DNA of 64,000 bases. It comes from Candidatus Helarchaeota archaeon. Its GTDB lineage: Archaea > Asgardarchaeota > Lokiarchaeia > Helarchaeales > RDOG01. Location: positions 352,001 to 416,000 of the forward strand of contig JAHPZH010000004.1 in assembly GCA_019058315.1 (NCBI GenBank), written 5' to 3'. The position numbers and the translations under genes are program-made. Each line of letters begins with the position of its first letter. The stretch's first letter is position 1. This document shows positions 37,664 to 60,619 of this stretch, in pieces. The notes under the pieces were generated by a model. That model made no database searches and was not told where the DNA came from. It worked only from the letters and a program-made list of their open reading frames with translations.

Positions 37664-37708
37664 GAAAGTACCATCTGATTTCGTTATAATTTCATTTCGT
37701 AACTATTC

Positions 37709-38761
37709 TTATAATGGTATTAAACCGCTCCATCTTCTAAATCGAATTTTTTCCTTTTTTAATCTTATTATACCTTCTTTATTAAGTGGTCTACACTCTG
37801 GACCAATTCTCACATAATATTTAATTTCACCATTTATTACTCCATGACATCGTGGCATTCTTGGAATGAAAAAGACAAGAATTACATTTCCATTTTCGAG
37901 TGTTATTTCTTGAAATAGATCGTTCTTTGTAGGTTCAATAAAAGGTTTTATATGGTGAAATGCTTTCAAAATATCTTCAACTTCACTTGGTAATACACCA
38001 TTTAGCGACTTGATAGTACTATCTTCTTCTAATACTCCTACTATAATGTGTCCTCCCTTTGTATTTGCGAATGCAGAGATAACTCTTGCAAATTTTTTCC
38101 CCCTCGCCTCTTTTGCTATAGATTTGAATTCAATAAATATACGTTTATTAAAATCAAGAAATGAACCTTCACGAATACTTCTTTTTTTCAAATTTATAAT
38201 TGTATTAATTGTTATCTTTTGAACATTTTCAGGAATAAGATATTTAATTTCTTTTAAGGAATCCCGACCCAAACTTGTTATTTTCCAATAATAATAATCA
38301 TTATCAATTAATCCCAGATCTTCAAGGTATAATCCAATTCTCACAAACAATTCCGTTTTAATTTGCTTATCTTCGGTTCTATTAGAGTTTATCTCTTTTT
38401 GAAGTTCTTTAAAAGCAAAACCATATTTTGCCGGATCTTTTTTCCATTCAGCATCTAAAAATTTGAGAATTTCAGAGCTAACTTGATCAAAAAACGGATC
38501 TTCAAGCAATTCTTCATGTGTTACTATACCTATAGAACCAATTTTAAGTTCAGGAAATTCCTCTCCGTGATAGGGTTGCCAACGAAAAAAATCCTTTGAC
38601 TTTCCGTCATATAATGCCCTCCTTAATGTATTTTCGTTTATATCTGGGATATGACCTTTAAGACTCTCCAAAATTTCTTCAAAAGATGACCTTTCGTCAT
38701 TTATTTCTTTTTCATATAGAATTTTTAATATTTGTAATTGGATATAATTGATTTTATCCAT
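37709..38761 (-). CDS. wHTH + AlbA_2 (Schlafen-like) protein
   Basis: IEFK, ISAFANTKGGHIIVGV.E, YYVRIG; 'ITSLGRD' wing motif. Confidence 0.8.
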   Translation of the reverse strand: MDKINYIQLQILKILYEKEINDERSSFEEILESLKGHIPDINENTLRRALYDGKSKDFFRWQPYHGEEFPELKIGSIGIVTHEELLEDPFFDQVSSEILKFLDAEWKKDPAKYGFAFKELQKEINSNRTEDKQIKTELFVRIGLYLEDLGLIDNDYYYWKITSLGRDSLKEIKYLIPENVQKITINTIINLKKRSIREGSFLDFNKRIFIEFKSIAKEARGKKFARVISAFANTKGGHIIVGVLEEDSTIKSLNGVLPSEVEDILKAFHHIKPFIEPTKNDLFQEITLENGNVILVFFIPRMPRCHGVINGEIKYYVRIGPECRPLNKEGIIRLKKEKIRFRRWSGLIPL

Positions 38762-38762
38762 T

Positions 38763-39059
38763 TTATGAAACCCCTAATCCTAATCTTTTTAATTCCCTTC
38801 GCAAGATCTTCGTGTATAATTTTCTTAATTTAAATTTTATCTGATAATAAAATGCAACTGAAGGTGAATAACTCATAGTGACTACGATTTTATTTTTTCG
38901 TAAGGTGCTATCAAAATTTAAAAATGAAAACTCTAGAAGTGTTGGATAAATATGTTTTAGGATTAAATGGAATTTCTTATTAGAATTTATGATGCCTTTC
39001 TCTAAAGCATTATTTATTTGATCTTTTCCTATAATATTTCCTGATTTCAACTTAATCAT
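38763..39059 (-). CDS. hypothetical protein
   Basis: 98-aa ORF abutting the downstream gene. Confidence 0.4.
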   Translation of the reverse strand: MIKLKSGNIIGKDQINNALEKGIINSNKKFHLILKHIYPTLLEFSFLNFDSTLRKNKIVVTMSYSPSVAFYYQIKFKLRKLYTKILRRELKRLGLGVS

Positions 39060-39337
39060 TATATACCAACTTATAAGATTAATCTGCTTTTAATTTAATG
39101 ATTTGAACATTCATCAAGTTAATGTCCCCTTATGTAGCTATTTTTAAATAATAATATTGTAATATAATTTAATTTCGTTGTTCTAGGATATTTTTATAAT
39201 TCTATATTTTTATCAAAATATAATCTTTTTAATTTAGTAAGTTTTTCTAATCCTTTTAATTTTTTAATTCTATTATGACTCAAATATAAACCTCTAATTA
39301 AGTTAGATTTTCAAACCTTTCAATTTTTTCAATTTGG

Positions 39338-41047
39338 TTAAAATGTAGAAATATCACTTTTAATTGTAGAAGTTGAGAGATTAGATTTCAATTCATTTAA
39401 AAAAGGTAATAATTCAGGATAATGTATAGATACTTTTTCATAGATTCCTTTCGCTTTAACATAAGATTTTCTTTTAAGCAAAGAAAAATATAGTTCTTTG
39501 ATTATATTGGTATCATATTCATTTTCGTTATATGCTCCAAGACAAAAATCTTCTAATTCTTCCCAATTCTCCAACTTTTTTAAAATATTAACTATTAAAT
39601 TAAATAATTTGAGATTACGTTCTTGATGTTCATACCAACTATAAAAAGAATATTCTTTTGCACTTTCGAAATCATTTTGAATATAAAATACTTTAGCTCT
39701 ATAATATAAGAAAAATGGTTCTAAATGAATTAAATTTGGATTATTTTTTATGATTTTTAATGAACCTCCAATGAATAATTTAGCTTTTTTTAGATCTTGA
39801 TCTATATCTACGTAATATTCAATCAATAACCGCATGGTAATTAAATCATCCTTATAAATTTTAAGGGTTTTTTCTGTAAATTGTAGGAATTCTTGATATT
39901 TTTTAAGATTAAAATAAACTAGCTGCATTGAATGTAACATATCTATGTCATTTGGTCGATGATTAAGATATTTTTCACCCCAAAGAATCGATTCATCTTG
40001 TTTTTTTAAATTTAAATAAATTTTATTAAGAATTCTAAATATTTCTAATGCTTGATTTGAATTTGGTGAAATTGATTTAAGTTCAGATTTTAATTTCTTC
40101 TCCATTTTAATTAATGATTGTTTGTCAATAGGAATATCTTTCCAAGCATAAGAAAAACCTTTATCCTGCTCTAGAAATTTCCTCATAAAGAAATTAATTA
40201 TTTCAACAAGGATTTGTATTTGGTTATAATCCAACTCAAGCATAAAATTCTTAATTAAATCAACTCCAATATAATATCCTTCATTACTTAATTGGAAATG
40301 AAAATTTTCAAATATTAATTCTTGAAGAACTGCTCTTTGAGTTCTAAATCTAATTTCCATAAGAAGTGCCTCAAAAACCATATCATCTTCCATTAAAAAC
40401 CAAGGCTCACCATTTTTATCTCTCATAAAGTATATTTTTCGAATTTCACTCCATTTTTTTAAAAAATATTCTAATTCAATATTATTAATTTTAAAATGAT
40501 TTCTAAATTCTTTTTGTAGTAATTTTATAATTTCAGGTTGAACTCTTCTCCATTGTTCTGATTTAGAATATTTAAGATTAAATCGGGATATATAATAAGC
40601 AAAAATGTAAGCTTTTTCTTCTGTTTCAAGGAATTTTATAAAATCAAAATCTTCTATTTCTAAAAAATTTTGTACACAATCAATTAGTAGTGAATTTGGT
40701 ATGGAGCCAAATTGTAAAAGGAATTTATCTCGAATATTTTTAACTTGACGTTCTATTAATTTATATCTACGAACTCGGGATGAATAATCATCCTTCCCAA
40801 GGATTTTTTCTACTTCTAAGCGTCCTTTAATAGTTAATTTATTCCACTTAATTTTATCTTCATATTCAATTTCAATAAGTCCATTTTCCCTTAAAAACTT
40901 TAAATACTTGCTTATTGTATTCCTTGATAAGTTAATTTTTTTATTTTTAATCAATGTGGTGTAATTTGTTTTACCATTTTCATGAATATAAACCAAAATT
41001 CTCTGAGCGTTGTCTAAATCATTGTAATCAACCAAATTTTTCACCAA
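39338..41047 (-). CDS. winged-HTH regulator with C-terminal TPR-like region
   Basis: LSRNTISKYLKFLRENGLIE...LTIKGR; helical repeats at the C-terminus. Confidence 0.75.
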   Translation of the reverse strand: MVKNLVDYNDLDNAQRILVYIHENGKTNYTTLIKNKKINLSRNTISKYLKFLRENGLIEIEYEDKIKWNKLTIKGRLEVEKILGKDDYSSRVRRYKLIERQVKNIRDKFLLQFGSIPNSLLIDCVQNFLEIEDFDFIKFLETEEKAYIFAYYISRFNLKYSKSEQWRRVQPEIIKLLQKEFRNHFKINNIELEYFLKKWSEIRKIYFMRDKNGEPWFLMEDDMVFEALLMEIRFRTQRAVLQELIFENFHFQLSNEGYYIGVDLIKNFMLELDYNQIQILVEIINFFMRKFLEQDKGFSYAWKDIPIDKQSLIKMEKKLKSELKSISPNSNQALEIFRILNKIYLNLKKQDESILWGEKYLNHRPNDIDMLHSMQLVYFNLKKYQEFLQFTEKTLKIYKDDLITMRLLIEYYVDIDQDLKKAKLFIGGSLKIIKNNPNLIHLEPFFLYYRAKVFYIQNDFESAKEYSFYSWYEHQERNLKLFNLIVNILKKLENWEELEDFCLGAYNENEYDTNIIKELYFSLLKRKSYVKAKGIYEKVSIHYPELLPFLNELKSNLSTSTIKSDISTF

Positions 41048-41075
41048 GATAGAATTTAAGAAAAAGTATATTTTA

Positions 41076-41091
41076 CTATACTTAAGTATAG
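41076..41091. promoter_or_regulatory. perfect 16-bp palindrome CTATACTTAAGTATAG, possible operator
   Basis: Lies between divergent genes; a related ATATACTTAAAGTATAT is at 36316-36332. Confidence 0.45.
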
Positions 41092-41205
41092 GTACATATA
41101 CCTACAAATAAAATGTTTTCTAATATCTAATTAGCCATTTTAAAAAGAATAGAATGGTGCATATTTAGAAAATAAATAAAAAAGGTGATAAATACGACTA
41201 AGAAA

Positions 41206-41313
41206 ATGACTGAAAAAGCTGCATCTAGAATTCAGTCACATTCAGATAAATCAGGTAAAAACAAAGGATTTAAGAGTAGAGCACAACGTGCTGCCTCAAA
41301 AAATAAAAAATAA
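41206..41313 (+). CDS. small basic SMP/LEA-like protein (35 aa), not in ORF track
   Basis: MTEKAASRIQSHSDKSGKNKGFKSRAQRAASKNKK*, matching the 'AASRIQS...F..RAQRAA' pattern. Confidence 0.7.
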   Translation: MTEKAASRIQSHSDKSGKNKGFKSRAQRAASKNKK

Positions 41314-41383
41314 TCCTTTTCTTCTTTTTTTAAATACTTATTATTTTCTAACAACTATTAATTAAAATAGTATAAGAATTAGG

Positions 41384-41468
41384 TGGGGGGGGCGGGATTT
41401 GAACCCGCGAACTCCTTCGAGAGTCACTTTCAAGGTGACCGCATTTGACCAGACTTTGCTACCCCCAT
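41384..41468 (-). tRNA. class II tRNA, anticodon TGA (Ser), Leu-like body, mismatched 1:72 and 2:71 pairs
   Basis: ATGGGGG-TA-GCAAAGTCTGGTCAAATGC-G-GTCAC CT TGA AA GTGAC-T CTC GAAG GAG TT C-GCGGG TTCAAAT CCCGC-CCCCCCC-A. Confidence 0.85.
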
Positions 41469-42115: not shown

Positions 42116-42604
42116 TCAGACATTGGATTTTATTTTAATAGTATAGTAATAACCCCATACTTTGTCTTGTTTCTTATCAGAAATTGAGACAAAATCTTTT
42201 AAATTTTCTAGATATTTATTCCAAAAACTTAAATCTTCTTCAGGAATGAAAAAATATATACAAAAACTTTTCAAAAAATCTATTTTTTCTAAAAGATAAT
42301 TAGTTATATGTTCGTACATAAATTTCGCAAAACCTTTTTTTTCAAAACCCTCTTTAACACCGATTCTACTAATATAATACACATTTTTTATATTAGGATG
42401 TTTGATACTCTCATCACGAAATCGCGCAATACCAACAATCTCCCCATCTAGCTCAAGAACCCAAGTTATATATTCTAATGATTCATCATAAAATTCTTTT
42501 AGTGTTCCACTTGGATTTTTTTTGTTAAATGACTCCCTACTTGTCAAAAAACTTATTTCCCGATCTTTTTTTTCTATCCTTCGAATTACTTTTGACATGT
42601 ACAT
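42116..42604 (-). CDS. GNAT acetyltransferase
   Basis: YISRIGV..GFEKKGFAK. Confidence 0.75.
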   Translation of the reverse strand: MYMSKVIRRIEKKDREISFLTSRESFNKKNPSGTLKEFYDESLEYITWVLELDGEIVGIARFRDESIKHPNIKNVYYISRIGVKEGFEKKGFAKFMYEHITNYLLEKIDFLKSFCIYFFIPEEDLSFWNKYLENLKDFVSISDKKQDKVWGYYYTIKIKSNV

Positions 42605-42745: not shown

Positions 42746-43414
42746 CTAAATCTTTGATTGATGTAGTAACCGACTTAGATTTTCTAAGCCTTCCAATTTC
42801 TCGATTTGATTATTATCAACATAAATTCTTTTTAATTGAGAGAGATTCACTAAACCTTCTATTTTTTCAATTTGATTATAACTCAAATACAAGGTTTCTA
42901 AATTAGAGAGATTTTCTAACCCCTCTATTTTTTGAATCCAATTGTGATGAAGAAATAAAAATTTTAATTGGAATAGTTTCTCGAGTCCCTCAATTTTTTG
43001 AATATAATTACCGAGCAAGTCTAAAATTTGTAATTGTGATAGATGTTCCAAACCTTCTATTTTTTTAATTTTATTCCATGCCAAAAATAATTGTCTTAGT
43101 CTTACAAGTTTTTCCAACCCTTCAATTTTACTAATTTGATTATTTTCAAAGTCCAAAATTTCCAATTTCTTAAGATCATCTAGATTTTCTATCTTTCTAA
43201 TTTTATTTTTTATAAAGAAATCTCCACCAATTTTTAAGTATTTTAATTGAGAAAAATTACTAATAATTTTGGGTACTTTTTCCATATCATTGCTATATAA
43301 GGCAAGTTCAATAACTCTTCCTCTCTCATCAATATCATAATCTAGATGCTCAATTTCTTCCCAATCTTCTAACTCCGAAATGCGTTTTTTTTCTAATGGA
43401 TGTTTAATTTCTAT
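42746..43414 (-). CDS. SDS22-type leucine-rich repeat protein
   Basis: 22-aa 'L..L.L..N.I.KIEGL' repeats. Frame extends upstream of 43285 with a cap homologous to the LRR cap of the upstream fusion. Confidence 0.85.
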   Translation of the reverse strand: MEIKHPLEKKRISELEDWEEIEHLDYDIDERGRVIELALYSNDMEKVPKIISNFSQLKYLKIGGDFFIKNKIRKIENLDDLKKLEILDFENNQISKIEGLEKLVRLRQLFLAWNKIKKIEGLEHLSQLQILDLLGNYIQKIEGLEKLFQLKFLFLHHNWIQKIEGLENLSNLETLYLSYNQIEKIEGLVNLSQLKRIYVDNNQIEKLEGLENLSRLLHQSKI

Positions 43415-43416
43415 AA

Positions 43417-46400
43417 TTATACCCCCTGAACCTTAATTTTTTTACAATATTTGATTACAGCATTGACTCCATGATCATAAACAATTTGATCAGATTTTGA
43501 TAAAGGGTTGTTAGATAAATCCAATTTCTTTAAACTTGAAAGGTCTTCTAATCCACTAATATTTTTAATCTGATTTCCATAAACTATAAATTGCTGTAAA
43601 TGTTTTAGATGTCCTAAATTTTCAATAATTTTAATATCATTTTTTCCGAGATTCAATCTTTTTAATTTAAACAACTTATGCAGACCACTAATTTTTGAAA
43701 TTCTATTATTGTGTAAATTTAGCACTTCTAATTTGGTTAGATCATCAAGTTCCTCTATTTTGGAGATTTGATTTAGAGACAAATCTAAAACACGTAAATA
43801 TGAGAAGTTAGAAATTATTTTTGGAATTTTTTCAAGAAAAAGGTTATTTAAATTAAGTCTTACTACATGACCATCATAATCCATCTCATAATCATATGAT
43901 CCTATACGATATTTTGTGATTAATTCCTGAATTATCTCTCCATCTTTAATCTCTTCTATTTCAGGTTTTTCTCCAGGTTTTATTATCTGATTTATTATTT
44001 CAAATTGGTACTGAATTTGTTGTGTTTCTATCCTTCTTTCAAATGAAGCAAAAACACCATATTCGGAATCATTTAATAGATAATTAGCTAAGTTTTTCGC
44101 TTCAAAATCAATAATGTCGGACAAAGGCATTATTTGATGGTCATAGAAGAAAGGAAATGAAAATAATCTATTAAATAATCCATCCAATTTATCATTTTTC
44201 CCTCCCACTATATAAAATACTCTCTCATTCCATTCACTATTTTTCCAATTTATATCAGTTTCGTCGAATTTGCTAGCTCTAAACATTAATAATAAATAAA
44301 AACGAAGTGGAACTCTATAAGCATCCATAAAATCATATATAAGCTCTCTATTCTCTGGACTTTCTATAGGTTTAGATTTTCCCTCTCCATAAGAACGATA
44401 ATGGAGTATTCCTCTTCCTGGCCAATATTTTGAAAATCCAACTTTACCCAAAGCTTCACTAGCTCTTTTTTCTAGATTGAAAAATAAATAATTTAATGCC
44501 ACATTATACCTATCTAGTGCTCGAGCACCATAAAATATAGCTGTAGTGGCATGCCGTTGATATTGACGACTTGAAAATCTATCCTCTGGGGGTAGTGCTT
44601 TTTTAACACCATCCCATGCTTCATCATCGCAATTCGCTTCTATAGATCTTAATTTTCCTATAATCTCATCAAATTTTTTCTCATTATCACCTTGAGATTC
44701 CTTTAAAATTTTCTCTTTAATATAATAAGCTGTTATAGCATAATCTAACTGTCTTAATACAAGCAAATTGACCTTTTTTGGAAAAATTTTATGTTTTTTT
44801 AATTGTAGAGTATAAAAGATACTTGATTTAATCTTACTAATTACCATTTCCCAAGCTATTGGGAATAATTTTCCTTCTTCTCTCGCTTTTTGAATTGCTT
44901 GACGTAATTTATCAGCTTCAGCAGCTTTTTGTTTTTGTATTTCTATTTCATAATCAGAAAGTTTTTCAATTTCAATGTTTAATTTACTAATGAATTCTAG
45001 GTCTTCGTCGAAAATTTCTCCACCCGCAAGTCTTAATTTATACACTTCAAACGTATAATACGAACGACCATCAACTTTGATAATATGTAAATTAAATTGT
45101 TCCCCTCTTTCTAATGACAATTTCTTTCCTGGTCCAAGATGAATTAATTGCTTAGTACCGTAAATAGTAACCGAGTAAATTCCTCTATATTTACTTATTC
45201 TATCGGACCCGATGTTTGTTCCTTTATAGAACACAAATCCTCCTTTTTTATACCTAATTAGAACCTCACAGTTATTGCAAATATACATTTTATTCTTTGT
45301 AGGCATTCTTAGAGTCCCTGATTTACGACAATTGGGACATATGATTTTATCTTGTTCATCCTTGTTGAATTTATTAAAAGGATGATAATTTCGGGATTTA
45401 TATTTGAAATGAATACAAGCAGGTTCATTTTTTAACCGTCTCTTTTGTTTTTTTCGACAACAAGATTTGGGACCATCTTCCCTAACTTTTATGGAATTTG
45501 CGATAAAAAATTCACATTCTTGGCAAAAAATCCGTTCTTTCTCCTCAGGTTTCATTCCTGCTAAATAATAACGCTTAGACGGACGCCCCTTTATTATCAG
45601 GTCAAACGAAAATTCCAAATCTTTACTAATTTTGTCCAATTGATACCAAATAGCAGATTTCTTAATATTATTATATTTACGCTTTAATATATGATGTAAT
45701 TCTTTTATTGTCGCCCCTTTTTTTCCACTATTTCCCAATTCTTCTTTTATAGAATCCAGATATATCGAACTTCCATGTTTCTTCCTACGTGTGCGTTTAG
45801 AAACATGAAAATGAATTGTGTCTTTATCATCATTATATCGTTCAATTATATATCTAATCCGCCAAAATATTGGTTTATTTTCTTTTAAATTTAATATTTT
45901 CTTCTCGTCTATATCATGATAGTTTTTTCTCCCTAGGGCAATAGAATGAAATAATCTAGCAGCCTTAATAACATACGTTGAACAGAAAAACCATATTCCA
46001 GTTTTTCTACAAACTTCTACATCTCCCCCAAAATACTTATTTTTTTTAATAAATTTTTTATTTTTTAGTTTATTTTGAGAATATTTTTGGATTATTATTT
46101 TATATTTATTATTCTCTCGTTCAATATACTCTTGTGAAATTACACCCTTATATTGTGAAATTATTTCTTCCGCATGAGATTCACCAATTATTTCACCAAT
46201 TCTAAGTATGATCTCCTTACTCTTGGGTTTTTCATTTTGGTTAAAAAAGTCTAAAATTTGCATAAACGCTTTTCTATTTAGCTGAGTCTCTACAAGGCCC
46301 TCCCCTAGATAAGTTAGAGCATATTTTTTCTTAACATCCCGAATTAAATTCCTATTTTTTTTCATCAGTTCTTTATTCTTTACTGGAACTAGATCGGGCA

Positions 46401-47835
46401 TCAAGGATTTTAAAATCAGATCAAGGGGTTTTACATCGATACAGAAAGTTATTGATAATATGAAAGGCACTCGAAACATATATTCTACAAATTTATCGGG
46501 ATGCAAGACTTTCTCAAGATGCTCCATAATCTGAGCTTTTGAACGCTGACGTAAAAATAAATATTCAAGAATAATTTTTGGCAAATCTTTAATCGTTATT
46601 TGGCTATTTATTGCTTCTAGTGTATAACCCCGGAAAATTGTTTTATTTTTATCTAGAAATTTGACACTCTTTTTAAAGTCCTGATAATCTCTATAATACA
46701 TTAAATGAACTATTGTACCTAATAATTCTCTACATCTACCAATTATTTGTTCAAGCTCAATTTTTGAATATTTTTCAGGATCAGCTATAATTATTTCTTC
46801 AATATCCTTTACATCTACACCAGCTTCTAAAATGGGGCTACAACTCAAAATTTTGATTTTACCTGAATTAAAACTATCGAAAATTTGCTTTTTTTCATAA
46901 GTCGCAAGCCCTGCATGAATAAATCCGAAGATTTCAATATTATAACCTTTAAATTTTTCTTTGAGATGGTCTGAAATTTCCTGAGCTTTTTCTCTTGATT
47001 TGATAAAAATTAATAATTTAGCTTTTATTACTTCTCTATATTTTCTTAAGAAATTCCTGACTAATCCTGTAATTTCATCAAGTGGGGGATCACTTGCTTT
47101 TTGATGTAATTCAAATTTGAATTTGCGATTAGATGGATAGTAAAGTAATTCTGAACCAAATCTTTCCGACCAATATTCAGCAGATTCACGGTCAAATGTT
47201 CCAGTTAGAAAGCAAAAAAGAGGTCTGCTTTTCTTATTATCGAAATATTCAAATTTTAACTTATAAATCATGGTCTCTAATTTCATTCCCCTAGAAGGGT
47301 CTCTAATAGTATGGATTTCATCTACTATTATTGCTCCAAAAATGTCTTTTCTGTCAAACAACTCATATTTTTGAATTCGAAATAAAAAAGCTCGAAACGC
47401 TTCATAAGTACAAAGGAGAACTACTCGCCGATCTCTTTCTTTAGGTTTTTTCTTACTTTTACGGTCTTGTTGCCCTTTCTTCATTTTTGGTCTTAATTCT
47501 AATAGGTCTGGTCTTGATTCACCGACTAGTTTTAATATTTTAACCTTACTCCCAAAAAACCACCTTAACTCCTTTTCCTTTTGATATACCAACGTAGTAG
47601 TTGGTTCGAGTATAACACCTATTTTTCCTTCATCTGTTCCGACATAAAGGCCAATAAAAGCAACCCAAGTCTTTCCAGAATTTGTTGGGGCACAAAGAAA
47701 TATACTTATACCAGACAATAATTTATAAATCGCCAATTTTTGACTTTCAAATAAATCTGCAGTTGTAACACCATTTCTACGTGCGAATTGATCAAGTAGA
47801 TAAAGTAATTCGCTTCTATTTTTTAATAAAGCTAT
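43417..47835 (-). CDS. cas1: SF2 (Ski2/Hel308-like) helicase - HTH - Cys clusters - Cas1 - LRR fusion
   Basis: Helicase: Q motif LFESQ, APTNSGKT, DEIH, TGT, IFIKSR, HAGL, LEAGVD, QIIGR. Cas1: 'LRSIEA', 'DRYNVALNYLF', 'GILH', 'LIYDFMDAYR'. C-terminal SDS22 LRRs. Confidence 0.8.
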   Translation of the reverse strand: MALLKNRSELLYLLDQFARRNGVTTADLFESQKLAIYKLLSGISIFLCAPTNSGKTWVAFIGLYVGTDEGKIGVILEPTTTLVYQKEKELRWFFGSKVKILKLVGESRPDLLELRPKMKKGQQDRKSKKKPKERDRRVVLLCTYEAFRAFLFRIQKYELFDRKDIFGAIIVDEIHTIRDPSRGMKLETMIYKLKFEYFDNKKSRPLFCFLTGTFDRESAEYWSERFGSELLYYPSNRKFKFELHQKASDPPLDEITGLVRNFLRKYREVIKAKLLIFIKSREKAQEISDHLKEKFKGYNIEIFGFIHAGLATYEKKQIFDSFNSGKIKILSCSPILEAGVDVKDIEEIIIADPEKYSKIELEQIIGRCRELLGTIVHLMYYRDYQDFKKSVKFLDKNKTIFRGYTLEAINSQITIKDLPKIILEYLFLRQRSKAQIMEHLEKVLHPDKFVEYMFRVPFILSITFCIDVKPLDLILKSLMPDLVPVKNKELMKKNRNLIRDVKKKYALTYLGEGLVETQLNRKAFMQILDFFNQNEKPKSKEIILRIGEIIGESHAEEIISQYKGVISQEYIERENNKYKIIIQKYSQNKLKNKKFIKKNKYFGGDVEVCRKTGIWFFCSTYVIKAARLFHSIALGRKNYHDIDEKKILNLKENKPIFWRIRYIIERYNDDKDTIHFHVSKRTRRKKHGSSIYLDSIKEELGNSGKKGATIKELHHILKRKYNNIKKSAIWYQLDKISKDLEFSFDLIIKGRPSKRYYLAGMKPEEKERIFCQECEFFIANSIKVREDGPKSCCRKKQKRRLKNEPACIHFKYKSRNYHPFNKFNKDEQDKIICPNCRKSGTLRMPTKNKMYICNNCEVLIRYKKGGFVFYKGTNIGSDRISKYRGIYSVTIYGTKQLIHLGPGKKLSLERGEQFNLHIIKVDGRSYYTFEVYKLRLAGGEIFDEDLEFISKLNIEIEKLSDYEIEIQKQKAAEADKLRQAIQKAREEGKLFPIAWEMVISKIKSSIFYTLQLKKHKIFPKKVNLLVLRQLDYAITAYYIKEKILKESQGDNEKKFDEIIGKLRSIEANCDDEAWDGVKKALPPEDRFSSRQYQRHATTAIFYGARALDRYNVALNYLFFNLEKRASEALGKVGFSKYWPGRGILHYRSYGEGKSKPIESPENRELIYDFMDAYRVPLRFYLLLMFRASKFDETDINWKNSEWNERVFYIVGGKNDKLDGLFNRLFSFPFFYDHQIMPLSDIIDFEAKNLANYLLNDSEYGVFASFERRIETQQIQYQFEIINQIIKPGEKPEIEEIKDGEIIQELITKYRIGSYDYEMDYDGHVVRLNLNNLFLEKIPKIISNFSYLRVLDLSLNQISKIEELDDLTKLEVLNLHNNRISKISGLHKLFKLKRLNLGKNDIKIIENLGHLKHLQQFIVYGNQIKNISGLEDLSSLKKLDLSNNPLSKSDQIVYDHGVNAVIKYCKKIKVQGV

Positions 47836-48073
47836 TCCTTCCTATTATCGAATTACAAAACTTATAATGATTAATATCAAATGAATTTAAAATTTACTAA
47901 GAATTTTTTGAAAAAAAAATAATTTTTTAATAAATAAAAATTTTTAAAGGTATGAAATGCAATTGTTATAAGAACAAAGAGGAGTTTTTATTCTAAAATA
48001 AAAGTTCTTTACATAAAGTTTAGTTAAATTGTTAATTCTCTTCGAATAAATATTAGTTTAGGGAGAAAATATA

Positions 48074-48181
48074 ATGAAAAAAATCCGTAAAATTGGCGTT
48101 GGGGTTAGTATCACATTAATTTTTAGTATATTAATTGGGCTTACCATTTATTTTACTTCTGGGAATATATGTAAAATATAG
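48074..48181 (+). pseudogene. short signal/anchor-like ORF (35 aa), probable gene remnant
   Basis: MKKIRKIGVGVSITLIFSILIGLTIYFTSGNICKI* with GGGAG RBS. Confidence 0.35.
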
Positions 48182-48199
48182 AGGAGTTTTATATTAATT

Positions 48200-50590
48200 A
48201 TGAGAAATAACATTAAAAAAAAGCGCTTCTTAACAATATTTCTAGTTTTTATTATATTTTCCTTTATCATTTTTGAATTTTCACCAAAAAAATATTTTCA
48301 ATTCAATTCATTTAATGATAGGGGTCAAAAAAACCATTTTATTATACCTATAACAGATTTACAGGATTTTTTTGAGTTAGATACCAATTCATATATTTGG
48401 ACACAAACACAAGTTGTTTCCATTGAAAGCTCTGATAGTATACTTGATTTATCATTATTTATAGACGATTCTGACATTTTACATCTCGCTTGGAGTGATT
48501 ATACAGATTATCAAGGATCAGGAGAAGATGCGGATTATCTTTATAAAAGTTGTAATAGTACTTCAGGAATTTGGACACCAGCTGAGGTAATTTCCACAGA
48601 AAGTGCAAACCGTTCTCACTTTGGAAATATTGATGTAGATAAATTTGGTAATATAAATATTGCTTGGTGTGATATTACTGATTACGGGGGTGCAGGAATA
48701 GATTATGATATATTTTATAAATATAAAGACGCTAACACAGGTCTTTGGACTATTACTGAGGTTATTACCTCAGGGGCTGTTAATTCATCTGCCGATCCAG
48801 AAATTCGATCAGATAATTTTGGAAACTTGCATATGGTATGGTATGATTCTACAGACTATGGAGGAACTGGTTCAGATATTGATATCTTCTATAAATTTCG
48901 CAATCACACTACTGGTACGTGGTCTATAATTGAACTAGTTTCAACAAATACCACAGAAAATTCCATGTGGCCCGATATGACTTTAGATGAATTTGGAAAT
49001 GTTCATGTAGTTTGGGAAGAATGGAACAGTTCTGGACTTGAATATAATATTTTTTATAAAATGCGCAATTTTACAACAGGAAATTGGACAAAAATTGAGG
49101 AAGTTTCAACAGAAAGTTCTGATTTTTCCGAAGCTCCTGCTATATCAGTTGATTCTTCTGGTAATATACATGTTGTTTGGAGAGATAAAATGGATTATAT
49201 GGGTGCTGGTATAGATGAGGATATATTCTATAAGCAAAAGTATACAAACAATAATAGTTGGTCTGCTGCTGTATTAGTTTCTGATGGGTGTAATAAAGTT
49301 TCTAGTTCTCCTGAAATCTTTATGGGTAATGATGGAAAATTACATTTTGTATGGAGAGATGATACTGAATATAATGGAGCAGGAGGAGATTGTGATATCT
49401 TCTATAAATGTTTAGATTTAAATAATAATGAGTGGTCGACGAAAGAAGTGGTTTCCACTGAAAGTACTGCCAGCTCCTCATATCCAAAGCTCGCTGTAGA
49501 TGGTTTGGGAGTAATTCATGTAGTTTGGTTGGATGGCACGAATTATAATGGTTCAGGTGCGGATTCTGATGTCTTTTATAAGAAAAAAATTAAATTTACC
49601 CCACAAAATAATGAAGATCCAGATTATAGTCTCCCATTTTATACAACACCACCAACTTATAGATTTTGGCCTTATTTAATTTTAATGTTTATCGTTTTAT
49701 TGATCCCCTTACCTTTTATGATATATAAAAAATATTCTTCCAAATCCTCTCAACTGATTTTTGATAAAACATCACCTGAACAAAGAACATTATTTAGATC
49801 AAAATTAGATAGTTATCCATTATATAGAGAGGAATTACCATTTGAACAATTTGAAAAAACCTATGAAAAAGATAAAGTAAAGCATATAGATAGAAAATCA
49901 ATTGATTACTCAATAAAGGTTAAAAAAACTGAAACTAAAAAATCATTAGTTCCACGTTCGCCAAGGGTTTCACCACTAAGCTCGAAATTAAAGAGATATT
50001 CAATGTACAAAGAAGATGTTCCCTTTGAAAAATTAAAAAAAGCCTATTTAGAAAATAAAGCAAATGATCTTGACAAAAAATCTATTGAAGAATCAATAAC
50101 AGATAAAAAAATTAAAACCGAAAAACCATTAATTTCACATTCATTAGAAGAACAAAGCTCTCTTATTCTAGCCCTCAAGGATGAGAATATTTTTATACGT
50201 ATTAATGCTGCTAAAGAGCTCGGAAAATTTAATGATATAAAATCAAGTTACGTACTAATTAATGCCTTTAAAAACAACATTGAAAATAAAGAAGTTCAAA
50301 ATGCGGTGGAGTTATCTCTAATAAAAATTGGCGAAACAGCAGTAAAGCCATTACTTGATTTAATCAAAGGTTTGGAAATAAGCCTATTAACTAGCTCCTT
50401 TTTTAGAACAGATTTGTTATTTTTCGTTTTTAGAGTATTAAAAACAATTGCTACTAATAAAGTAGGGAAAAAAGCTGTAGACAAAATCCCGTTTAGAGAT
50501 GAACATCTTTATATTTCACGATTTCATCAATTAGCTCATAGAGCTAGATTATTTGCAGAAATAATAATTGGTAAATCAAAAAATTCGTGA
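48200..50590 (+). CDS. single-pass membrane protein: extracellular 7-blade beta-propeller, cytoplasmic repeat, HEAT repeats
   Basis: Signal peptide; seven 'IHVVW.D...DIFYK' units; TM helix; two SKL..Y..Y.E..PFE repeats; 'RINAAKELG' HEAT. Confidence 0.75.
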   Translation: MRNNIKKKRFLTIFLVFIIFSFIIFEFSPKKYFQFNSFNDRGQKNHFIIPITDLQDFFELDTNSYIWTQTQVVSIESSDSILDLSLFIDDSDILHLAWSDYTDYQGSGEDADYLYKSCNSTSGIWTPAEVISTESANRSHFGNIDVDKFGNINIAWCDITDYGGAGIDYDIFYKYKDANTGLWTITEVITSGAVNSSADPEIRSDNFGNLHMVWYDSTDYGGTGSDIDIFYKFRNHTTGTWSIIELVSTNTTENSMWPDMTLDEFGNVHVVWEEWNSSGLEYNIFYKMRNFTTGNWTKIEEVSTESSDFSEAPAISVDSSGNIHVVWRDKMDYMGAGIDEDIFYKQKYTNNNSWSAAVLVSDGCNKVSSSPEIFMGNDGKLHFVWRDDTEYNGAGGDCDIFYKCLDLNNNEWSTKEVVSTESTASSSYPKLAVDGLGVIHVVWLDGTNYNGSGADSDVFYKKKIKFTPQNNEDPDYSLPFYTTPPTYRFWPYLILMFIVLLIPLPFMIYKKYSSKSSQLIFDKTSPEQRTLFRSKLDSYPLYREELPFEQFEKTYEKDKVKHIDRKSIDYSIKVKKTETKKSLVPRSPRVSPLSSKLKRYSMYKEDVPFEKLKKAYLENKANDLDKKSIEESITDKKIKTEKPLISHSLEEQSSLILALKDENIFIRINAAKELGKFNDIKSSYVLINAFKNNIENKEVQNAVELSLIKIGETAVKPLLDLIKGLEISLLTSSFFRTDLLFFVFRVLKTIATNKVGKKAVDKIPFRDEHLYISRFHQLAHRARLFAEIIIGKSKNS

Positions 50591-50615
50591 TTAAATTATC
50601 TTTGAAAGATATAAA

Positions 50616-50830
50616 TTCAAAAAAATGATGCCTTTTTCTAAACACTTTTCAAAAAATCGATATTATAAAAAATTGATCAAAAAGGAGTTTATTGATCAAA
50701 AAAAATTCTATGCAGTTTTCTAAACGCTTTTTAAAAAATTGTATTTTACTAGGTGATTTTTGATCAAAAAAATTTCTATGCAGTCTTCTAAACGATTTTC
50801 GAAAAATTGAACTTTTCAGGATCAAAAAAA
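50616..50830. repeat. degenerate ~68-bp tandem repeat (about 3 units) with TTGATCAA palindromes
   Basis: ttgatcaaaaaaa.ttctatgcagt.ttctaaacg.tttt..aaaaattg at 50692 and 50760; a more degenerate unit near 50616. Confidence 0.7.
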
Positions 50831-51685
50831 ATTTTCATTTTTACTGAAATCAAAGAGATCCCTTAACTATAAGAATTGAGATAAATTATAAAAATTTGTA
50901 ATTAAATAACCTGATTTAAGTGGAAAATAGAATAAAAAAATTAGTTATTGAATAAGTATAAGTTTCTTAATTTCATTTACTAAATTTAAAATTTTTAATT
51001 TATTACAATGTTATGTTGTTTAACGCTGAAAAAAATGAGAGTTTCTACAAAAATATAGTTAAGTTAATCTTTGGATTTGAAAGAAGAATTTTAAAGAGTT
51101 ATAATTGAATCGCTATTAATTCTAAACATTAAATTGGAAAATATTTTTTAAATTTAAAGATGGAATAATGTTTTTCGATATTTATGTTCATAAGAAAGCT
51201 TCTTAATGATATTAAATTTAAAAACAATAAATAACTCTTAATTATTTTGTAAACTAAGTATATTTTTCTAATTTTATAATTTAAGCTAAAAAATTTTCAA
51301 ACTTCTAAATTCATTTAAATTAAATTTTAATTTTTATATTAGAAAGCTTATACAGCTAAAATTTTAATCAAAATTAAATAAACTCTTTTTAAATTAATTG
51401 GCTTATTAAATTTGTGATTGCTTAATAATAATTCAAATTAAAGTATATACCAGAATACTTAATTATAATTTAAGAAAATTTATATAAAATTTTCGTTTAA
51501 TTTGAATAAAGTCGATAATAATCAGCCTTGATATCCTCATTCGATGAAAAAATTTATTTAATAAATTTTTCTTTTTTTACTAAGAAATTTTTAAATTAAT
51601 GATAAAAACTTCTTTTTAATAAAATTTTAAAGATATTAAAATTGTTATCTTTTCTATTTTCTGCCCAAATTCCTACCCGAACCGT

Positions 51686-51731
51686 CTAAATAACCAGTTT
51701 TAGGGGTGTTTAAATATAGAATTAACAGTTA
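51686..51731 (+). promoter_or_regulatory. putative promoter/operator of the RAMP operon
   Basis: TTTAAATA box plus TAACaGTTA palindrome; 41/46 identical to 54052-54097 and 60361-60406. Confidence 0.7.
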
Positions 51732-51773
51732 TATAATAAATAAAAGTTTCAAAAAAAAAGAGGTTGAAAGAAT

Positions 51774-52619
51774 TTGAAAACAATAAATGTGGTTTTTTTA
51801 TGTGAATCAATAACAACAAGACAAGATCTCTTTGTCACCTTTGGAAATAGTCATGGAATCTTTGATCAAAAAAAGTTATCGGGGTATACTAAACTTGGTC
51901 GCATACCTGGTAAGACCTTGAAAGGTTGGTTAAGACATGGAATGGAAAAACTATTGTTGAAAATGGGAATATCTATTTGTCATCCTCTACCTGCAAATAC
52001 GATAACAAACGAGAGGAATAAAAAATATTATAAAGAAGATATGGCAATCGGTTACCATCCACGAGGAGAATGTGAAAAACAAGGCGGATGTCCGATATAT
52101 AATATGTTTGGGGATTTAGATAAACCAAGTAATTTAATTGTTCCCAGTGTTTATTTTTATCCTTCAGTTGGAGGCGGAACAATGGCAGCTAATATTAATA
52201 AAATTTTTGGATCTGTCGGAAGAGGAAGAATTGAAATTGACCATGAAAGTCCTAGAAAACGATCAAATAGTTTTCAAACATATATGAGCAACGAAACAAT
52301 TGTAGGAACTTATATTGAGGCACCTTGGAATCTTGTAATTCGAGAAGATAACGAACTTCATGAAATTTTAATTTTAAAAACTTTGGAATATCTCTTCGAA
52401 AAAAACACAAATTCCGATATGACATTTATGGTAGGCGGACAACGAACTGCTGGATGTGGAAGAGCTGTTGCGGTTAAATTAAATGATAGCGGAAATTATT
52501 TGATAAAAAATAGAAATTCCCTTGGTATAAAGCAAGAAAAAGTGGAGTTAATTAATGGAAAATTCGATGATTTCATGAAGGAGTTAAAAAAGAAATTTCC
52601 TATAAAGGCGGTAAAATAA
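51774..52619 (+). CDS. cas7: Cas7-like RAMP (HRAMP/Asgard-RAMP type)
   Basis: RIPGKTLKGWLRH, Cys/His insert ICHP..YHPRGEC....CPIYNMFG, G-rich loop VGGQRTAGCG. Confidence 0.85.
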   Translation: MKTINVVFLCESITTRQDLFVTFGNSHGIFDQKKLSGYTKLGRIPGKTLKGWLRHGMEKLLLKMGISICHPLPANTITNERNKKYYKEDMAIGYHPRGECEKQGGCPIYNMFGDLDKPSNLIVPSVYFYPSVGGGTMAANINKIFGSVGRGRIEIDHESPRKRSNSFQTYMSNETIVGTYIEAPWNLVIREDNELHEILILKTLEYLFEKNTNSDMTFMVGGQRTAGCGRAVAVKLNDSGNYLIKNRNSLGIKQEKVELINGKFDDFMKELKKKFPIKAVK

Positions 52620-52620
52620 A

Positions 52621-53328
52621 TTGGAATACAAAGTTTTAAGATTGCTCTTTGGATTCTTAAGCGAATATGTGGGAAATCCGCTCTATATCTCTGGAAATGC
52701 AATTCGCCATGCTTTTCATAAAAAAATTAATACATCGGTTGGATGTTTTACAGAATTAAGACGATTGGATGCAATAAATAGCTATGAAGCTTTTATTAAA
52801 ATCAGAATAGAGAAGCCTTTTTTAATACCTCACACTCAATCTTTTTTTTCTAAGATTGAAAGGAAGAAAAAACATCTAATTTATTTCACACCTACTTCAA
52901 TAACCTTCGATATTATTAATCCTCCTGAGAATCTTATTAATTTTATTAAAAATTTGAATATAATTCAGTTGGGTGGTTTAAGAAATGAAGGTTTTGGAGC
53001 TGTTGAACTTCTTGATCATCTACTTATTGATTTAAAAAAAATTGAATATCCTGATATTGGGACACATGTAACTCTTATATCACCAATATTATATGTTCCA
53101 AAATTTCTTGAAACTTATCAGTGTCGTCAGGAATATGTAATTTTTTGGAATAATAGTAAAAAAAATCGGATAAAAATAATCTCACCTGGACAATTTTTCA
53201 GAATAAAAAAGAATAAAAACATAAAAAAAATTGCAGAAAAAGGGATCTTACGCAAGGTTTTATTTGGTCAGTTCGGGTTTGGTGAATTCTTTGTTAATAA
53301 TTGGCCAAAGGAGGAGGAAAATGAATAA
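52621..53328 (+). CDS. cas5: Cas5-group RAMP with two G-rich loops
   Basis: YISGNAIRHA, QLGGLRNEGFG, LISP, C-terminal GQFGFGEF; 1-nt gap after cas7. Confidence 0.7.
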   Translation: MEYKVLRLLFGFLSEYVGNPLYISGNAIRHAFHKKINTSVGCFTELRRLDAINSYEAFIKIRIEKPFLIPHTQSFFSKIERKKKHLIYFTPTSITFDIINPPENLINFIKNLNIIQLGGLRNEGFGAVELLDHLLIDLKKIEYPDIGTHVTLISPILYVPKFLETYQCRQEYVIFWNNSKKNRIKIISPGQFFRIKKNKNIKKIAEKGILRKVLFGQFGFGEFFVNNWPKEEENE

Positions 53329-53998
53329 TATACTATCAATTCTACGACATGATCTTCATAAATTGAGGATAAAAGGATTTAAACCCCATAAAGAAGCCTT
53401 AGTTGAGCCTGAAATGAAAAAAGCAGATTCTATAGCCAGTTGGTTTTCAAGAAATGGCAATAAAATAGAGTTCGATATTAATAAAAGACTGTATTTGAGG
53501 GATTCTTATTTGATTAAAATTGAAAAAAATAAAATCAGAAATCAAATCATTAAAAAAAGAGAAGAAATTTTTAAAATTTTTAATGAAAAAAATCCTACAA
53601 AATTACATTCTCAGATTTTAAACTCAAAGGTTCTAAATAAATTTTCAGAGGCACGAATTTGCCCCCATAGTAGCTATAAATATCATTTGCTTTTAACTTG
53701 CAGTATTTATTGGAATTTGAAAAATAGTAATTGTTGGCAAAAATTATATTTAGCAGAAAATGCCGAAATTGATAGTCCGTTTCAGATTATCTACAAAGAT
53801 GATCAACGTGAATGGGCACTTACTCCTAACGGAGGAATGTCCCGCGTTTTCCCACAGTTTTCTAGAACTTGGTTGAGACGTCAAACATTTAGTTTAGGAG
53901 GTGATGATCTCATCCTCGATGGACTCCTATCCCAAATCGGGAGTTGGAGTGCTGCACTTGCAACAATCGAGGATTGGAGAGAGCTTCAAAAACCATAA
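53321..53998 (+). CDS. third core gene of the HRAMP-like module (uncharacterised)
   Basis: ATG at 53321 after GGAGGAGG, overlapping the cas5 stop. 'YKYHLLL' and 'LDGLLSQIGSWSAAL..IED' resemble, from recall, the haloarchaeal HRAMP-associated protein. Confidence 0.65.
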   Translation: MNNILSILRHDLHKLRIKGFKPHKEALVEPEMKKADSIASWFSRNGNKIEFDINKRLYLRDSYLIKIEKNKIRNQIIKKREEIFKIFNEKNPTKLHSQILNSKVLNKFSEARICPHSSYKYHLLLTCSIYWNLKNSNCWQKLYLAENAEIDSPFQIIYKDDQREWALTPNGGMSRVFPQFSRTWLRRQTFSLGGDDLILDGLLSQIGSWSAALATIEDWRELQKP

Positions 53999-54036
53999 AT
54001 ATAGCAAGGGAAAAATTAGCTTGACTCGGTGCCTAA

Positions 54037-54217
54037 CAATGCATAGTACCACTAAATAACCAGTTTTCGGGGAATTTAACTATAAAATTAACAGTTAATC
54101 AAAGCTCTAAATAGAATAATCCTAAAAACAAAGTTACGTCTCGGTCTCAGCAGTGTAGACCGAAAAGAGGTAAAATCTGGAAATAGAAATTATCTCAATG
54201 TATAGTACAACTAAATA
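54037..54217 (+). repeat. 22-nt direct repeat pair (54037-54058, 54196-54217)
   Basis: CAATGCATAGTACCACTAAATA vs CAATGTATAGTACAACTAAATA (20/22); also at 60346 and 60505. Confidence 0.8.
54052..54106 (+). promoter_or_regulatory. second copy of the RAMP promoter, with no ORF downstream
   Basis: 41/46 identical to 51686-51731; 55/55 identical to 60361-60415. Confidence 0.7.
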
Positions 54218-54290
54218 TAAAGAACCATCTTTATGCATCATATCCAGAAGCGGATTCACTAAGTTTCTCAGTTCACTTTAATAACCTTAA
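54103..54290 (+). ncRNA. candidate structured RAMP-associated ncRNA (ends approximate)
   Basis: Hairpins at 54141-63, 54167-96 (GAAA loop), 54217-34 and 54242-55; differences from the 60.4-kb copy mostly preserve pairing. Confidence 0.55.
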
Positions 54291-54309
54291 TAATTAATCT
54301 TTCATAATA

Positions 54310-55399
54310 CTAATCATATTCCCTAACTAATTCAAAAGTTTGTTTTAAGAACTTAGAAGTTCCTTTTTTTTGCATTAAATCTAGAAGTGGGTTTATGGGA
54401 AGAAAAATTATTTGGTTTTTAATAAAATTATCAAGAATTTTTAAAAATTTTAAAGATCCTGAGACACTAGTTGCCAATGAGAGGATTGCTGAAAATTTAT
54501 TTAAATCTGTATATCTTATGCCTATTATCGTGTTTATCCACCACCCAAATTGCTCTGACAATTGATGTTTTGCGATTAAAAGGGCTTTTTCAACATTTCT
54601 TTCCCGTTCAAAAATATCAATTACTTGTTCTTTAGAGATAGTGTAGAATTTTTCTAATGAACCATTTTTTAAATCTAAACCTAAAATCGTTTGTAATTTT
54701 ATATCTTGATCGAAAATGAACATTATTGTCCTAACTTGATATCCATAAATGAAATTAAAAGCTCTATTATAACTTAGTATTGAAGGGGGATTTAATTTTT
54801 TTAAATCAAAATTAAAAAATGTTTTTCCCCAACGTCTAAATAACACAATTTTACCATCAGAAGTCCATAAATCATCTGATTTGGTAATAAATTCTGTAAA
54901 TTTGATAAGGAAATTTTTAAAATTATATTTAGACATTATATCTTTCAAATAATTAAATATTTCAAATCTTGTTATAAAAGCGGTATTTACTTTCAGATAT
55001 TTTTCATTATAGAATACCTGATATTTTTTATGAAATTGTTTAGCGAGTTCTGCCATAAGATCCTGCATTGAATGTTTCTTCTTTTTGATTTTTTCAAATC
55101 TATGCTCAATTTTTTTATTATCCAGAAATGTAAAAACCAACTTATAAGGTGTTGTAAGAATTACAAATGATGCTATTTTCTTTTCATTTATCAAGGAAAA
55201 AACAACATTTTGAGGAGGTAATAATTTCGTAATTACGTTTCTAAAGGTTAAGGCATCGAAATTATCATTATCTGTAATAAATTTTTTAAGAAAATCTAAA
55301 AATAAGGGAGGATTATAAACTTGAATTCTTTCTTCTTTATACATTTTAGCTAAAAAATTCCAAAGAGCTGCAATATAGTCTAAAAATTCATATTTTAAT
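54310..55399 (-). pseudogene. 5'-truncated paralogue of the 60620-62200 gene
   Basis: Collinear with 60620-61709; homology ends abruptly at 55399, so the N-terminal ~164 codons are missing. Confidence 0.8.
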
Positions 55400-59822: not shown

Positions 59823-60221
59823 CAATAATAAACTCTGCTTCTTAATCTTTTTTTTTTCGAAAAATATCTATTTAGTTATCAATACACTTTTTGAAAAATT
59901 GAACTTTACTTGTTTTAAAAAAATTTTCATTTTTACTAAAAACCTAGAATATAAAATAATAAGATAAATTTTTAATATTTTTAATTAAACAACTTATTGA
60001 CAGCTTTTTTCTAAAATAAAATAAACTCTTTCTAAATCGATTGGTTTATTTAATTTGTGATTGTTAAAGATTAATTTTATTTAGAAAATATATTTGATTT
60101 TTTACTTAAAATTTAAGATAGAATAATTATAGCTACAGTTAAGTTAAACAAAAGTCTGTAAAATTTATTAAGTTTATCTTTATATTTTTTTTTTACTCAG
60201 AATTTAGAACTTTTTAGTATT

Positions 60222-60307
60222 ATTATTGGTGGGTCCTTTCTCAGATTGAGAGTTGGAGCGCTGTACTTGCAACGATCGAGGATTGGAGTGATCTTCAAGA
60301 AACTTAA
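60222..60307 (+). pseudogene. 3' remnant of the third RAMP-module gene
   Basis: VLSQIESWSAVLATIEDWSDLQET* vs LLSQIGSWSAALATIEDWRELQKP*. Confidence 0.85.
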
Positions 60308-60411
60308 ATATTGCATAGGAAAAATTTGCCTGACATAGTGCCTGACAATGCATAGTTCCACTAAATAACCAGTTTTCGGGGAATTTAACTATAAAATTAA
60401 CAGTTAATCAA

Positions 60412-60600
60412 AGCTTTAGATTGCTAAATATCAGAAACAAAGGTCTGTCCCAGTCTCAGCAGTGTAGATCGAAAAGAGATAAAATCTAGAAATAGAAATT
60501 ATCTCAATGTATAGTACAACTAAAGAAAGAGAGCTATCTTTATGTATCATATCCAGCAGAGGATTTGCCAAGTTTATTCAGTTCATTCTCATACTCTTAA
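60412..60600 (+). ncRNA. second copy of the candidate RAMP-associated ncRNA
   Basis: Promoter block 60361-60415 is intact; hairpins at 60476-60505, 60526-43 and 60551-64. Confidence 0.5.
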
Positions 60601-60619
60601 TAACTAATCTCTTATAATT

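Follow-up and report, generated by a model that had tools for sequence, protein, structure and literature searches.

A candidate crRNA-like guide matching the promoter of an array-less type III-like cassette beside an Asgard helicase-Cas1 fusion

The stretch of DNA analysed here (the window; 64 kb, C1:352001-416000, ~28% GC) comes from a 94%-complete, 5.79-Mb assembly of a Candidatus Helarchaeota archaeon. Its plus strand carries a cassette of three closely packed genes encoding Cas7, Cas5 and a small Cas10-like protein (mini-cas10, first listed as orf3), followed by a non-coding stretch, and its minus strand a gene for a fusion of a helicase, a Zn-ribbon, Cas1 and leucine-rich repeats (LRRs). 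We consider it likely that this locus is an ARAMP module, the Asgard array-less type III derivative known from published summaries (Makarova et al. 2020, CRISPR J 3:156; PMC8730458, PMC12669027), sitting beside an Asgard helicase-Cas1-LRR fusion and equipped with a fixed, probably autoregulatory, CRISPR RNA (crRNA)-like RNA. The argument is carried by a 46-nt match between this RNA and the cassette's own promoter, the mismatches of which recur with a period of six. A first-pass annotation had grouped the same parts, within ~12 kb and divergently transcribed, into one system in which a fixed RNA replaces the CRISPR array in defence or integration; all of the parts it named are present over that distance, and the Cas1 fusion (-) and the cassette (+) do run divergently.

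A guide-like RNA and its match in the cas7 promoter

The cassette is bracketed by a 46-nt direct repeat. Its first copy (51686-51731, + strand; hereafter the target box) overlaps a TATA-like TTTAAATA (51709-51716) and lies 43 nt before cas7 begins, while the second (54052-54097, 41/46 identical) lies in a stretch of ~310 nt free of open reading frames (ORFs; 53999-54310), which ends at a convergent gene; a third copy, at 60361, belongs to a relic described below. About 40 nt after mini-cas10 stands a handle-like motif, A1 (CAATGCAT, 54037-54044, + strand; consensus AWTG[C/T]AT), and from there runs a putative guide (guide 1, 54045-54097, + strand), of which positions 1-7 (AGTACCA) are a conserved extension of the motif and positions 8-53 match the promoter box. 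The target box is the top non-self match genome-wide for guide 1 in register 0. For comparison, further cassette loci (L numbers) were collected by exact-protein look-ups plus Cas7-alignment scans of genome and metagenome contigs (6 extra loci) and compared by tblastn. The distance from box to cas7 is 43-103 nt across loci, and the box, preceded by GAACCGT in the window, has a conserved GAAC(C)GT-like flank. Box sequences differ between loci and match the guide within a locus, in the window, L037, L052, L041 and L048, and over a shorter length in L038 and L040.

Counted from the first base after ...GCAT of A1, the mismatches between guide and box lie at 24, 29, 30, 36 and 41 in the window, at 24, 30 and 42 in L052, at 12, 24, 30, 36, 42 and 48 in L041, at 12 and 18 in L048, at 36 and 42 in L040, and at 33, 36 and 42 in L038. 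Eighteen of the 21 mismatches in these six loci thus fall at multiples of six (binomial P = 8e-12; 0/200,000 permutations as extreme), as do all six of L041 taken alone (P = 5e-6), and the register relative to the motif is identical in all lineages. Codon periodicity cannot cause the pattern, since the guide and box regions are both non-coding. Class 1 effectors, as seen in structures of Cascade, Csm and Cmr, leave every sixth base of the crRNA-target duplex unconstrained. Because such effectors impose period-6 mismatches, we take A1 and the ~50 nt after it for a crRNA-like guide, with the box as its target. The handle-like motif, AUUGCAU as RNA, resembles the archaeal 8-nt crRNA tag AUUGAAAG.

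The periodicity recurs in a complete genome from another family (G307), whose two operons form a second variant of the system, described further on. There a copy of the cas7 promoter box follows a conserved GC-rich element of ~110 nt, and 7/10 mismatches fall in one class modulo six (both loci). This element, which ends in AAAAGTGA, is present in three copies, at L058 7994-8226 and, on the reverse strand of L059, in IG2 and IG3; a search of the G307 loci with Rfam returned no match. We regard it as a possible repeat or scaffold for the guide RNA of this variant.

Downstream of guide 1 in the window the non-coding stretch continues with a GC hairpin (54142-54162, + strand), an AT hairpin (54167-54196, + strand) and, abutting the latter, a second, terminal repeat-like unit, A2 (CAATGTATAGTACAACTAAATA, 54196-54217, + strand). 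The RNA fold of 54037-54260 has a z of -2.56, and the stem of the AT hairpin varies in sequence between loci yet still pairs (stems compared by eye). Every locus has 2-3 copies of the motif in the 200-430 nt after mini-cas10, spaced by 77-180 nt and reading approximately AWTG[C/T]AT[A/G]G, 6 nt, TAAATAA. A profile of the motif, run with nhmmer over 226 kb of loci, matches almost only downstream of mini-cas10 and on the cassette strand, and the whole source genome holds four sites, all of them expected. In L029 (G125:C194, 1501-2180) we observed a degraded cassette, the N-terminus of Cas7 fused next to the C-terminus of mini-Cas10, which retains both A motifs, 77 nt apart.

The single non-coding RNA of the first-pass annotation is there as a non-coding stretch, but with two repeat-like motifs and with a degenerate second copy at 60234-60620 (+ strand; 88% identical to 53925-54310 in a blastn self-comparison). 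The relic opens with the final 72 nt of mini-cas10, continues through A1, the guide and the hairpins to A2, and has lost the cassette genes by deletion. It belongs to a 1.48-kb segment, 53925-55399, that is duplicated at 60234-61709 with 88% identity and includes a 344-aa gene (54310-55344, - strand), a 5'-truncated paralogue of a 526-aa gene at 60620-62200. The 526-aa gene and its DUF362 neighbour (62190-63449) also occur as a pair 6 kb from the cassette in L042.

For the sequence after A2 there was no significant genome match. Nor did local targets for the A2 and A3 guides rise over background in 11 loci, and a search of IMG/VR for protospacers of the A2 guide, with sixth positions masked, gave 0 matches. 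At 54367-54395, where the gene next to the non-coding stretch has its 3' end, the A2 guide matches 22/25 positions in the correct register. This pairing was rejected as not significant: random genome-wide best matches for this guide also reach 22/25, and the relic copy has no compensatory change. Among the loci there is no sign of spacer turnover, L048 and L050 carrying the same guide, as do both copies in the window. As first proposed, there is no sign of a CRISPR array: TRF found none in the 64-kb window, and an 18-mer chain scan found none across the 5.79-Mb assembly, although assemblies can lose arrays. The only Rfam match in the window is a tRNA-Ser. The proposal of a fixed RNA in place of the array gains from the period-6 signature, which is strong but indirect, and is tempered by there being one identifiable target, the system's own promoter. 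A role in defence or integration, on the other hand, is not supported, nor is a guiding of the helicase-Cas1 by this RNA; with its own promoter as the sole identified target, the RNA points to regulation instead.

If the RNA is a guide, the cassette transcript would run on through A1, Cas5 would bind, and perhaps cut at, AWUGCAU as a 5' handle (ending AUGCAU), and Cas7 subunits would coat ~48 nt of the guide. The resulting complex could pair with the promoter box, either as template-strand DNA over the TATA box, in which case it would occlude the promoter in the CreR manner, or as antisense RNA, for which a long leader of the divergent helicase-Cas1 gene (Cas1H) is a candidate. Such pairing would sense or repress the system's own expression, like the CreR-type mini-arrays of type I systems. 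The guide may itself drive the second unit (A2), since it copies a promoter. That Cas1H installs or exchanges the guide unit, or serves mobility, is speculation. A wider proposal, in which ARAMPs are RNA-guided, each with a fixed mini-array whose first guide polices its own promoter and whose guide units are installed or exchanged by the helicase-Cas1, is conceivable, and we hold it as a doubtful one.

The effector cassette and the helicase-Cas1 fusion

On the family, PADLOC and structure matches of its three genes, the cassette is a minimal type III-like effector, made of Cas7, Cas5 and a mini-Cas10 with an HD nuclease motif. The product of cas7 (51774-52619, + strand; 281 aa) is a Csm3-like RAMP (Pfam RAMPs, E = 5.7e-7; PADLOC Csm3, E = 1.2e-7), and the alignment of its family has invariant C69/H70/H95/C100/C106 plus FGDL. 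This family comprises ~40 clusters at 90% identity, with Candidatus Helarchaeota and Hodarchaeota among the names. The second gene (52621-53328, + strand; 235 aa, Csm4/Cmr3-like) encodes, judging by its predicted structure (predicted local distance difference test, pLDDT, 90), a Cas5-like two-RRM RAMP: Foldseek matched the model to the III-D effector 8s9x_A (E = 3.7e-6), with further matches to the type VII Cas5 9j9e_C, Csm4, Cmr3 and Cas6. Cas5 is a possible candidate for the enzyme that processes the pre-RNA.

Mini-cas10 (53321-53998, + strand; 225 aa), whose relatives carry the label DUF8574 (PF26506) in precomputed annotation, is one third the length of Cas10. Its model has a pLDDT of 81 and a predicted template-modelling score of 0.83, and all of the top 32 VIA-align rows (32/32) are Cas10, Csm1 or Cmr2, the best being 9g9e_A (Z = 12.0, root-mean-square deviation 3.8 Å, 201/225 residues aligned); Foldseek E-values were weak. 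Profile searches with Cas7 and mini-Cas10 against PDB sequences gave no meaningful match, and only structure comparison worked. In an alignment of 13 mini-Cas10 sequences an N-terminal HDxHK is invariant, as are further His/Asp residues, and a remnant GG[D/E]x is nearly so, with GGDD in the window copy only; type III Cas10 has an HD domain and two Palm domains (GGDD cyclase). At E <= 1e-3 the family numbers 110 representatives, none longer than 396 aa, in a set of 1.84 billion proteins. Complex prediction of Cas5 with mini-Cas10 scored 0.54 (best control 0.01), above a mark reached by 58/80 solved complexes and 2/110 mismatched pairs, although scores of 0.60 or less are the range of only 7 of those 80 solved complexes and of both mismatched pairs that passed. 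At least 87% of contacts agree between runs, with a partner pLDDT of at least 76. This gives weak support to a predicted pairing of the two proteins; since Csm1-Csm4 complexes are already solved, the pass may only reflect likeness to these.

The 1439-aa fusion (43417-47736, - strand; Pfam, PADLOC) has DEAD/Helicase_C domains at residues 1-360, Zn-ribbon-like Cys clusters at ~790-880, a Cas1 domain at ~930-1150 (Pfam, E = 2.9e-5; PADLOC Cas1, E = 4.4e-8) and LRRs at 1290-1439, and is of the Asgard aCas1/Cas1H type. Alignment with A. fulgidus Cas1 (4n06) is weak (E = 0.22) and pairs the Glu of SIEAN and the His of GILH; the putative catalytic Asp (YDFMDAYR) lies beyond the printed alignment and was assigned by eye. 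Directly downstream of the fusion is a gene for a 179-aa LRR protein (42746-43285, - strand; Pfam LRR_4, E = 1.6e-31), a homologue of which holds the same position in L037 (tblastn).

The source genome has five helicase-Cas1 genes, of 1439-2766 aa. The other four (2090-2766 aa; L054, C6:298000-313714; L055, C7; L056; and L057, C11) share the architecture and have no cassette. Three of the four run divergently from a TnpB gene; one of the three (L054) also lies beside a family B DNA polymerase (PolB), a locus that looks casposon-like. Asgard Cas1 variants (aCas1, groups 'Cas1H-Asgard') have been described as TnpB-associated and are thought to be transposases, their loci being reportedly repeat-flanked and thought to be transposons (PMC10691335). 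The window copy shares with these the fusion of a diverged Cas1 to an SF2 helicase at the N-terminus and the presence of multiple paralogues per genome, and the TnpB-adjacent paralogues are confirmed in the source genome. It differs in being shorter than its paralogues, in ending in LRRs with a separate LRR gene following, and in neighbouring a RAMP cassette rather than TnpB. A Cas1-domain tree of 8 sequences was too poorly resolved to group or split the cassette-linked Cas1s.

Linkage of the modules and competing explanations

The two modules that the first-pass annotation joined are not independently distributed. Of 15 distinct loci, 8 have a Cas1H-type gene adjoining the cassette, in varied arrangements. 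In the window it is divergent and 4 kb upstream of the cassette; in L037 (Cas7 70% identical) helicase and Cas1-LRR are split and the small LRR gene is present. It is likewise adjacent in L053, L052 and L048 (Cas7 76%, 57% and 49% identical) and in L041 (55%; Cas1 of 1071 aa), while the P0014 contig has a 635-aa Cas1 downstream on the same strand and in L014, where the contig ends, the match is limited to 81 residues of the helicase N-terminus (E = 2.6e-6). Cas1H was not visible in the flanks of L038/L039, L040, L044, L051 and L045+L047, nor at L042 and L043, each of which shows one flank only. Of 400 genomes surveyed in the phylum, 3 have close homologues of Cas7 and 6 have Cas1H-like domains; given this rarity of Cas1H (6/400), chance adjacency to the cassette is negligible. 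In the G307 variant Cas1H is inside the operon: both operons encode, on one strand, a helicase-Cas1, a Cas7-like RAMP (matched to the Cas7 family by hhalign with 96.5% probability), a protein of 269 aa and a GIY-YIG nuclease. The linkage is therefore real, yet facultative in both directions.

Some of the loci have other neighbours in common. L038/L039 and L040 instead share a pair of coiled-coil proteins (~362 and 409 aa, with weak SMC/JetC-like matches) plus a giant protein of 2430-2450 aa. The pair (L038 7315-9653, L040 2457-4813, L052 4669-6057) is upstream of the cassette in two loci and downstream in one. The giant proteins (L038 15842-, L040 12604-, L043 3176-10468) lie downstream of the cassette in Helarchaeota-like loci and share 57-60% identity from locus to locus where they align.

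Between the two modules of the window lies a gene for a 796-aa repeat protein (48200-50590, + strand), with a hydrophobic N-terminal anchor, 58-aa repeats, C-terminal HEAT repeats and an NCBIfam PDIAV_lipo match under that model's cutoff; an intergenic region of 1.2 kb separates it from cas7. The large gene that the first-pass annotation placed here is thus present, but it is probably not a part of the system, being absent in the closest relatives: between Cas1H and cas7 of L037, L041, L052, L053 and L048 it is missing and the modules abut. Because it is absent from that position in other loci, we read it as an insertion between the modules, probably outside the system.

Several observations weigh against the proposed guide RNA or against the link to Cas1H. 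L037 is degenerate, and no promoter match to the guide was found in L044, L045+L047, L029 or L051. Since the target never pairs with the 7 nt that directly follow the handle, the length of the putative handle is uncertain. The guide has the sense of the plus strand, the same as the operon mRNA, and type III-like complexes are not known to bind double-stranded DNA. Scans of the locus ORFs with Pfam, NCBIfam and PADLOC gave no match to Cas6 or Cas11 families. In L053, the closest relative, A-type motifs stand right before the cas7 and cas5 starts (2015-2041, 2976-3001), unlike in the window, and fit a cis-regulatory or processing element equally well as a guide handle. The evidence for linkage to Cas1H, finally, is synteny only, with the modules parted by the 796-aa gene in the window and four paralogues of the fusion standing without a cassette.

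These last points would be expected if the modules were chance neighbours within a variable or defence island, with a helicase-Cas1 that is independent (e.g. an aCas1-TnpB-type transposase) and a cassette that works without it. Three of the paralogues lie by TnpB, one also by PolB, as in PMC10691335, no Cas1H is seen in the visible flanks of L038/L039, L040, L044, L051 and L045, and the SLFN/AlbA_2 and M78-peptidase genes in the vicinity are suggestive of an island. Coincidence nevertheless appears unlikely, as it would have to produce the same neighbourhood in 8/15 loci with Cas7 identities of 49-76% and varied arrangements, and again within the G307 operon, from Cas1H-like genes present in 6/400 genomes; a distinct Cas1 is also reported for most ARAMPs in the summary of PMC8730458. 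The 46-nt boxes might alternatively be duplicated promoters or operators to which a regulatory protein binds, with gene conversion maintaining their likeness; the non-coding stretch would then be a by-product transcript or 3' untranslated region, and there would be no guide RNA. Mismatches at every sixth base, fixed to the motif and seen in at least four independent lineages plus the second variant, are not predicted by such operators, nor are boxes that diverge between loci and co-vary within a locus. We thus judge this account improbable, even with a TATA-like element in the box at the right distance from cas7, A-type motifs before gene starts in L053, L042 and L052, and no cas6 gene among the locus ORFs.

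It is very improbable, in our estimate, that Cas1H and the cassette are or were a mobile element, casposon-like or like an aCas1 transposon, with the repeats and the duplication as integration scars or ends. The imperfect 46-nt repeats with their period of six are unlike integration scars, and the region around 42.7-54.3 kb showed neither terminal inverted repeats nor target-site duplications. The genome contains a single copy of the cassette, and the relic, because it keeps a mini-cas10 fragment, is a product of deletion rather than of excision at repeats. What speaks for mobility is the description of repeat-flanked aCas1 loci as presumed transposons (PMC10691335), the duplication of 53925-55399 at 60234-61709, the tRNA-Ser gene at 41382-41468 and the varied contexts of the cassette. 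Of the hallmarks of casposons, no PolB gene, terminal inverted repeat or target-site duplication was found in the window, PolB adjoining a different paralogue (L054).

Known systems and the surroundings of the locus

The gene set itself is not new. In the published summaries, ARAMP is array-less and possibly not programmable (PMC8730458, PMC12669027), most examples include a distinct Cas1, and HNH or PD-(D/E)xK nucleases are most common (PMC8730458). Shared with the window are the Asgard host, diverged Cas7 and Cas5 closest to type III, the absence of an array and the distinct adjacent Cas1. The nuclease candidates here, the HD motif of mini-Cas10 and, in G307, GIY-YIG, fall outside the commonest ARAMP classes of these summaries, and an RNA gene resembling a mini-array, with two conserved motifs and a putative promoter-matching guide, would be a further difference. 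What the first-pass annotation offered as a fresh hypothesis had thus, as a gene set, already been published as ARAMP plus aCas1 (PMC8730458, PMC10691335, PMC12669027), whereas the guide feature is apparently undescribed; handle and guide seem new relative to the ARAMP summaries. HRAMP of Haloarchaea (Makarova 2019), which we liken to the cassette by description only, is also an array-less Cas5/Cas7 derivative with added nucleases (PMC8730458); it differs in host group, and no Cas1 association is reported for it. The mode of action of both ARAMP and HRAMP is described as enigmatic.

With type III-A/B (Csm/Cmr) systems the locus shares a Csm3-like Cas7, a Csm4-like Cas5, a Cas10-like HD domain and six-nucleotide pairing periodicity. 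It differs from these in that Cas10 is cut to 225 aa, Cas11, Cas6, CARF effectors and an array are absent, and the guide, as predicted, would be fixed and self-directed. CreR/CreA-type RNAs of type I systems are Cas-regulating mini-arrays that autorepress a cas promoter; the tracr-L RNA of Cas9, which Workman reportedly described in 2021, is said to be another Cas-regulating RNA (cited in PMC8730458). The CreR type has the same two degenerate repeat-like units by a cas operon, flanking a spacer that partly matches the cas promoter, a layout that predicts autorepression, whereas here the effector is type III-like and not known to bind double-stranded DNA, the match extends over ~46 nt, and the 77-180 nt between motifs contain hairpins and the promoter copy.

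If our reading is correct, a conserved handle and guide would show that an array-less effector still reads nucleic acid through RNA, with the RNA sequence, register and a concrete target, its own promoter, all named, so that whether ARAMP is RNA-guided becomes directly testable. The effector, whose three proteins add up to ~740 aa, would be a very small type III-like one with a defined predicted guide, and a testable role would be framed for Asgard helicase-Cas1 fusions.

Two further features of the window deserve mention. The region at 32323-41468 resembles a variable or defence island: it contains genes for SLFN/AlbA_2 proteins (32323-34374 and 37709-38761), a protein with an M78 peptidase domain (34623-35768), a winged helix-turn-helix protein (39338-41047) and the tRNA-Ser, and is followed by a GNAT gene (42116-42604). 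Just downstream of the 796-aa gene, at 50619-50815, are three direct repeats of ~68-82 nt with the core TTTTCTAAACGNTTTTNAAAAAATTG and with GATCAAAAAAA, and a block related to them is found at 59860-59993, in the relic copy.

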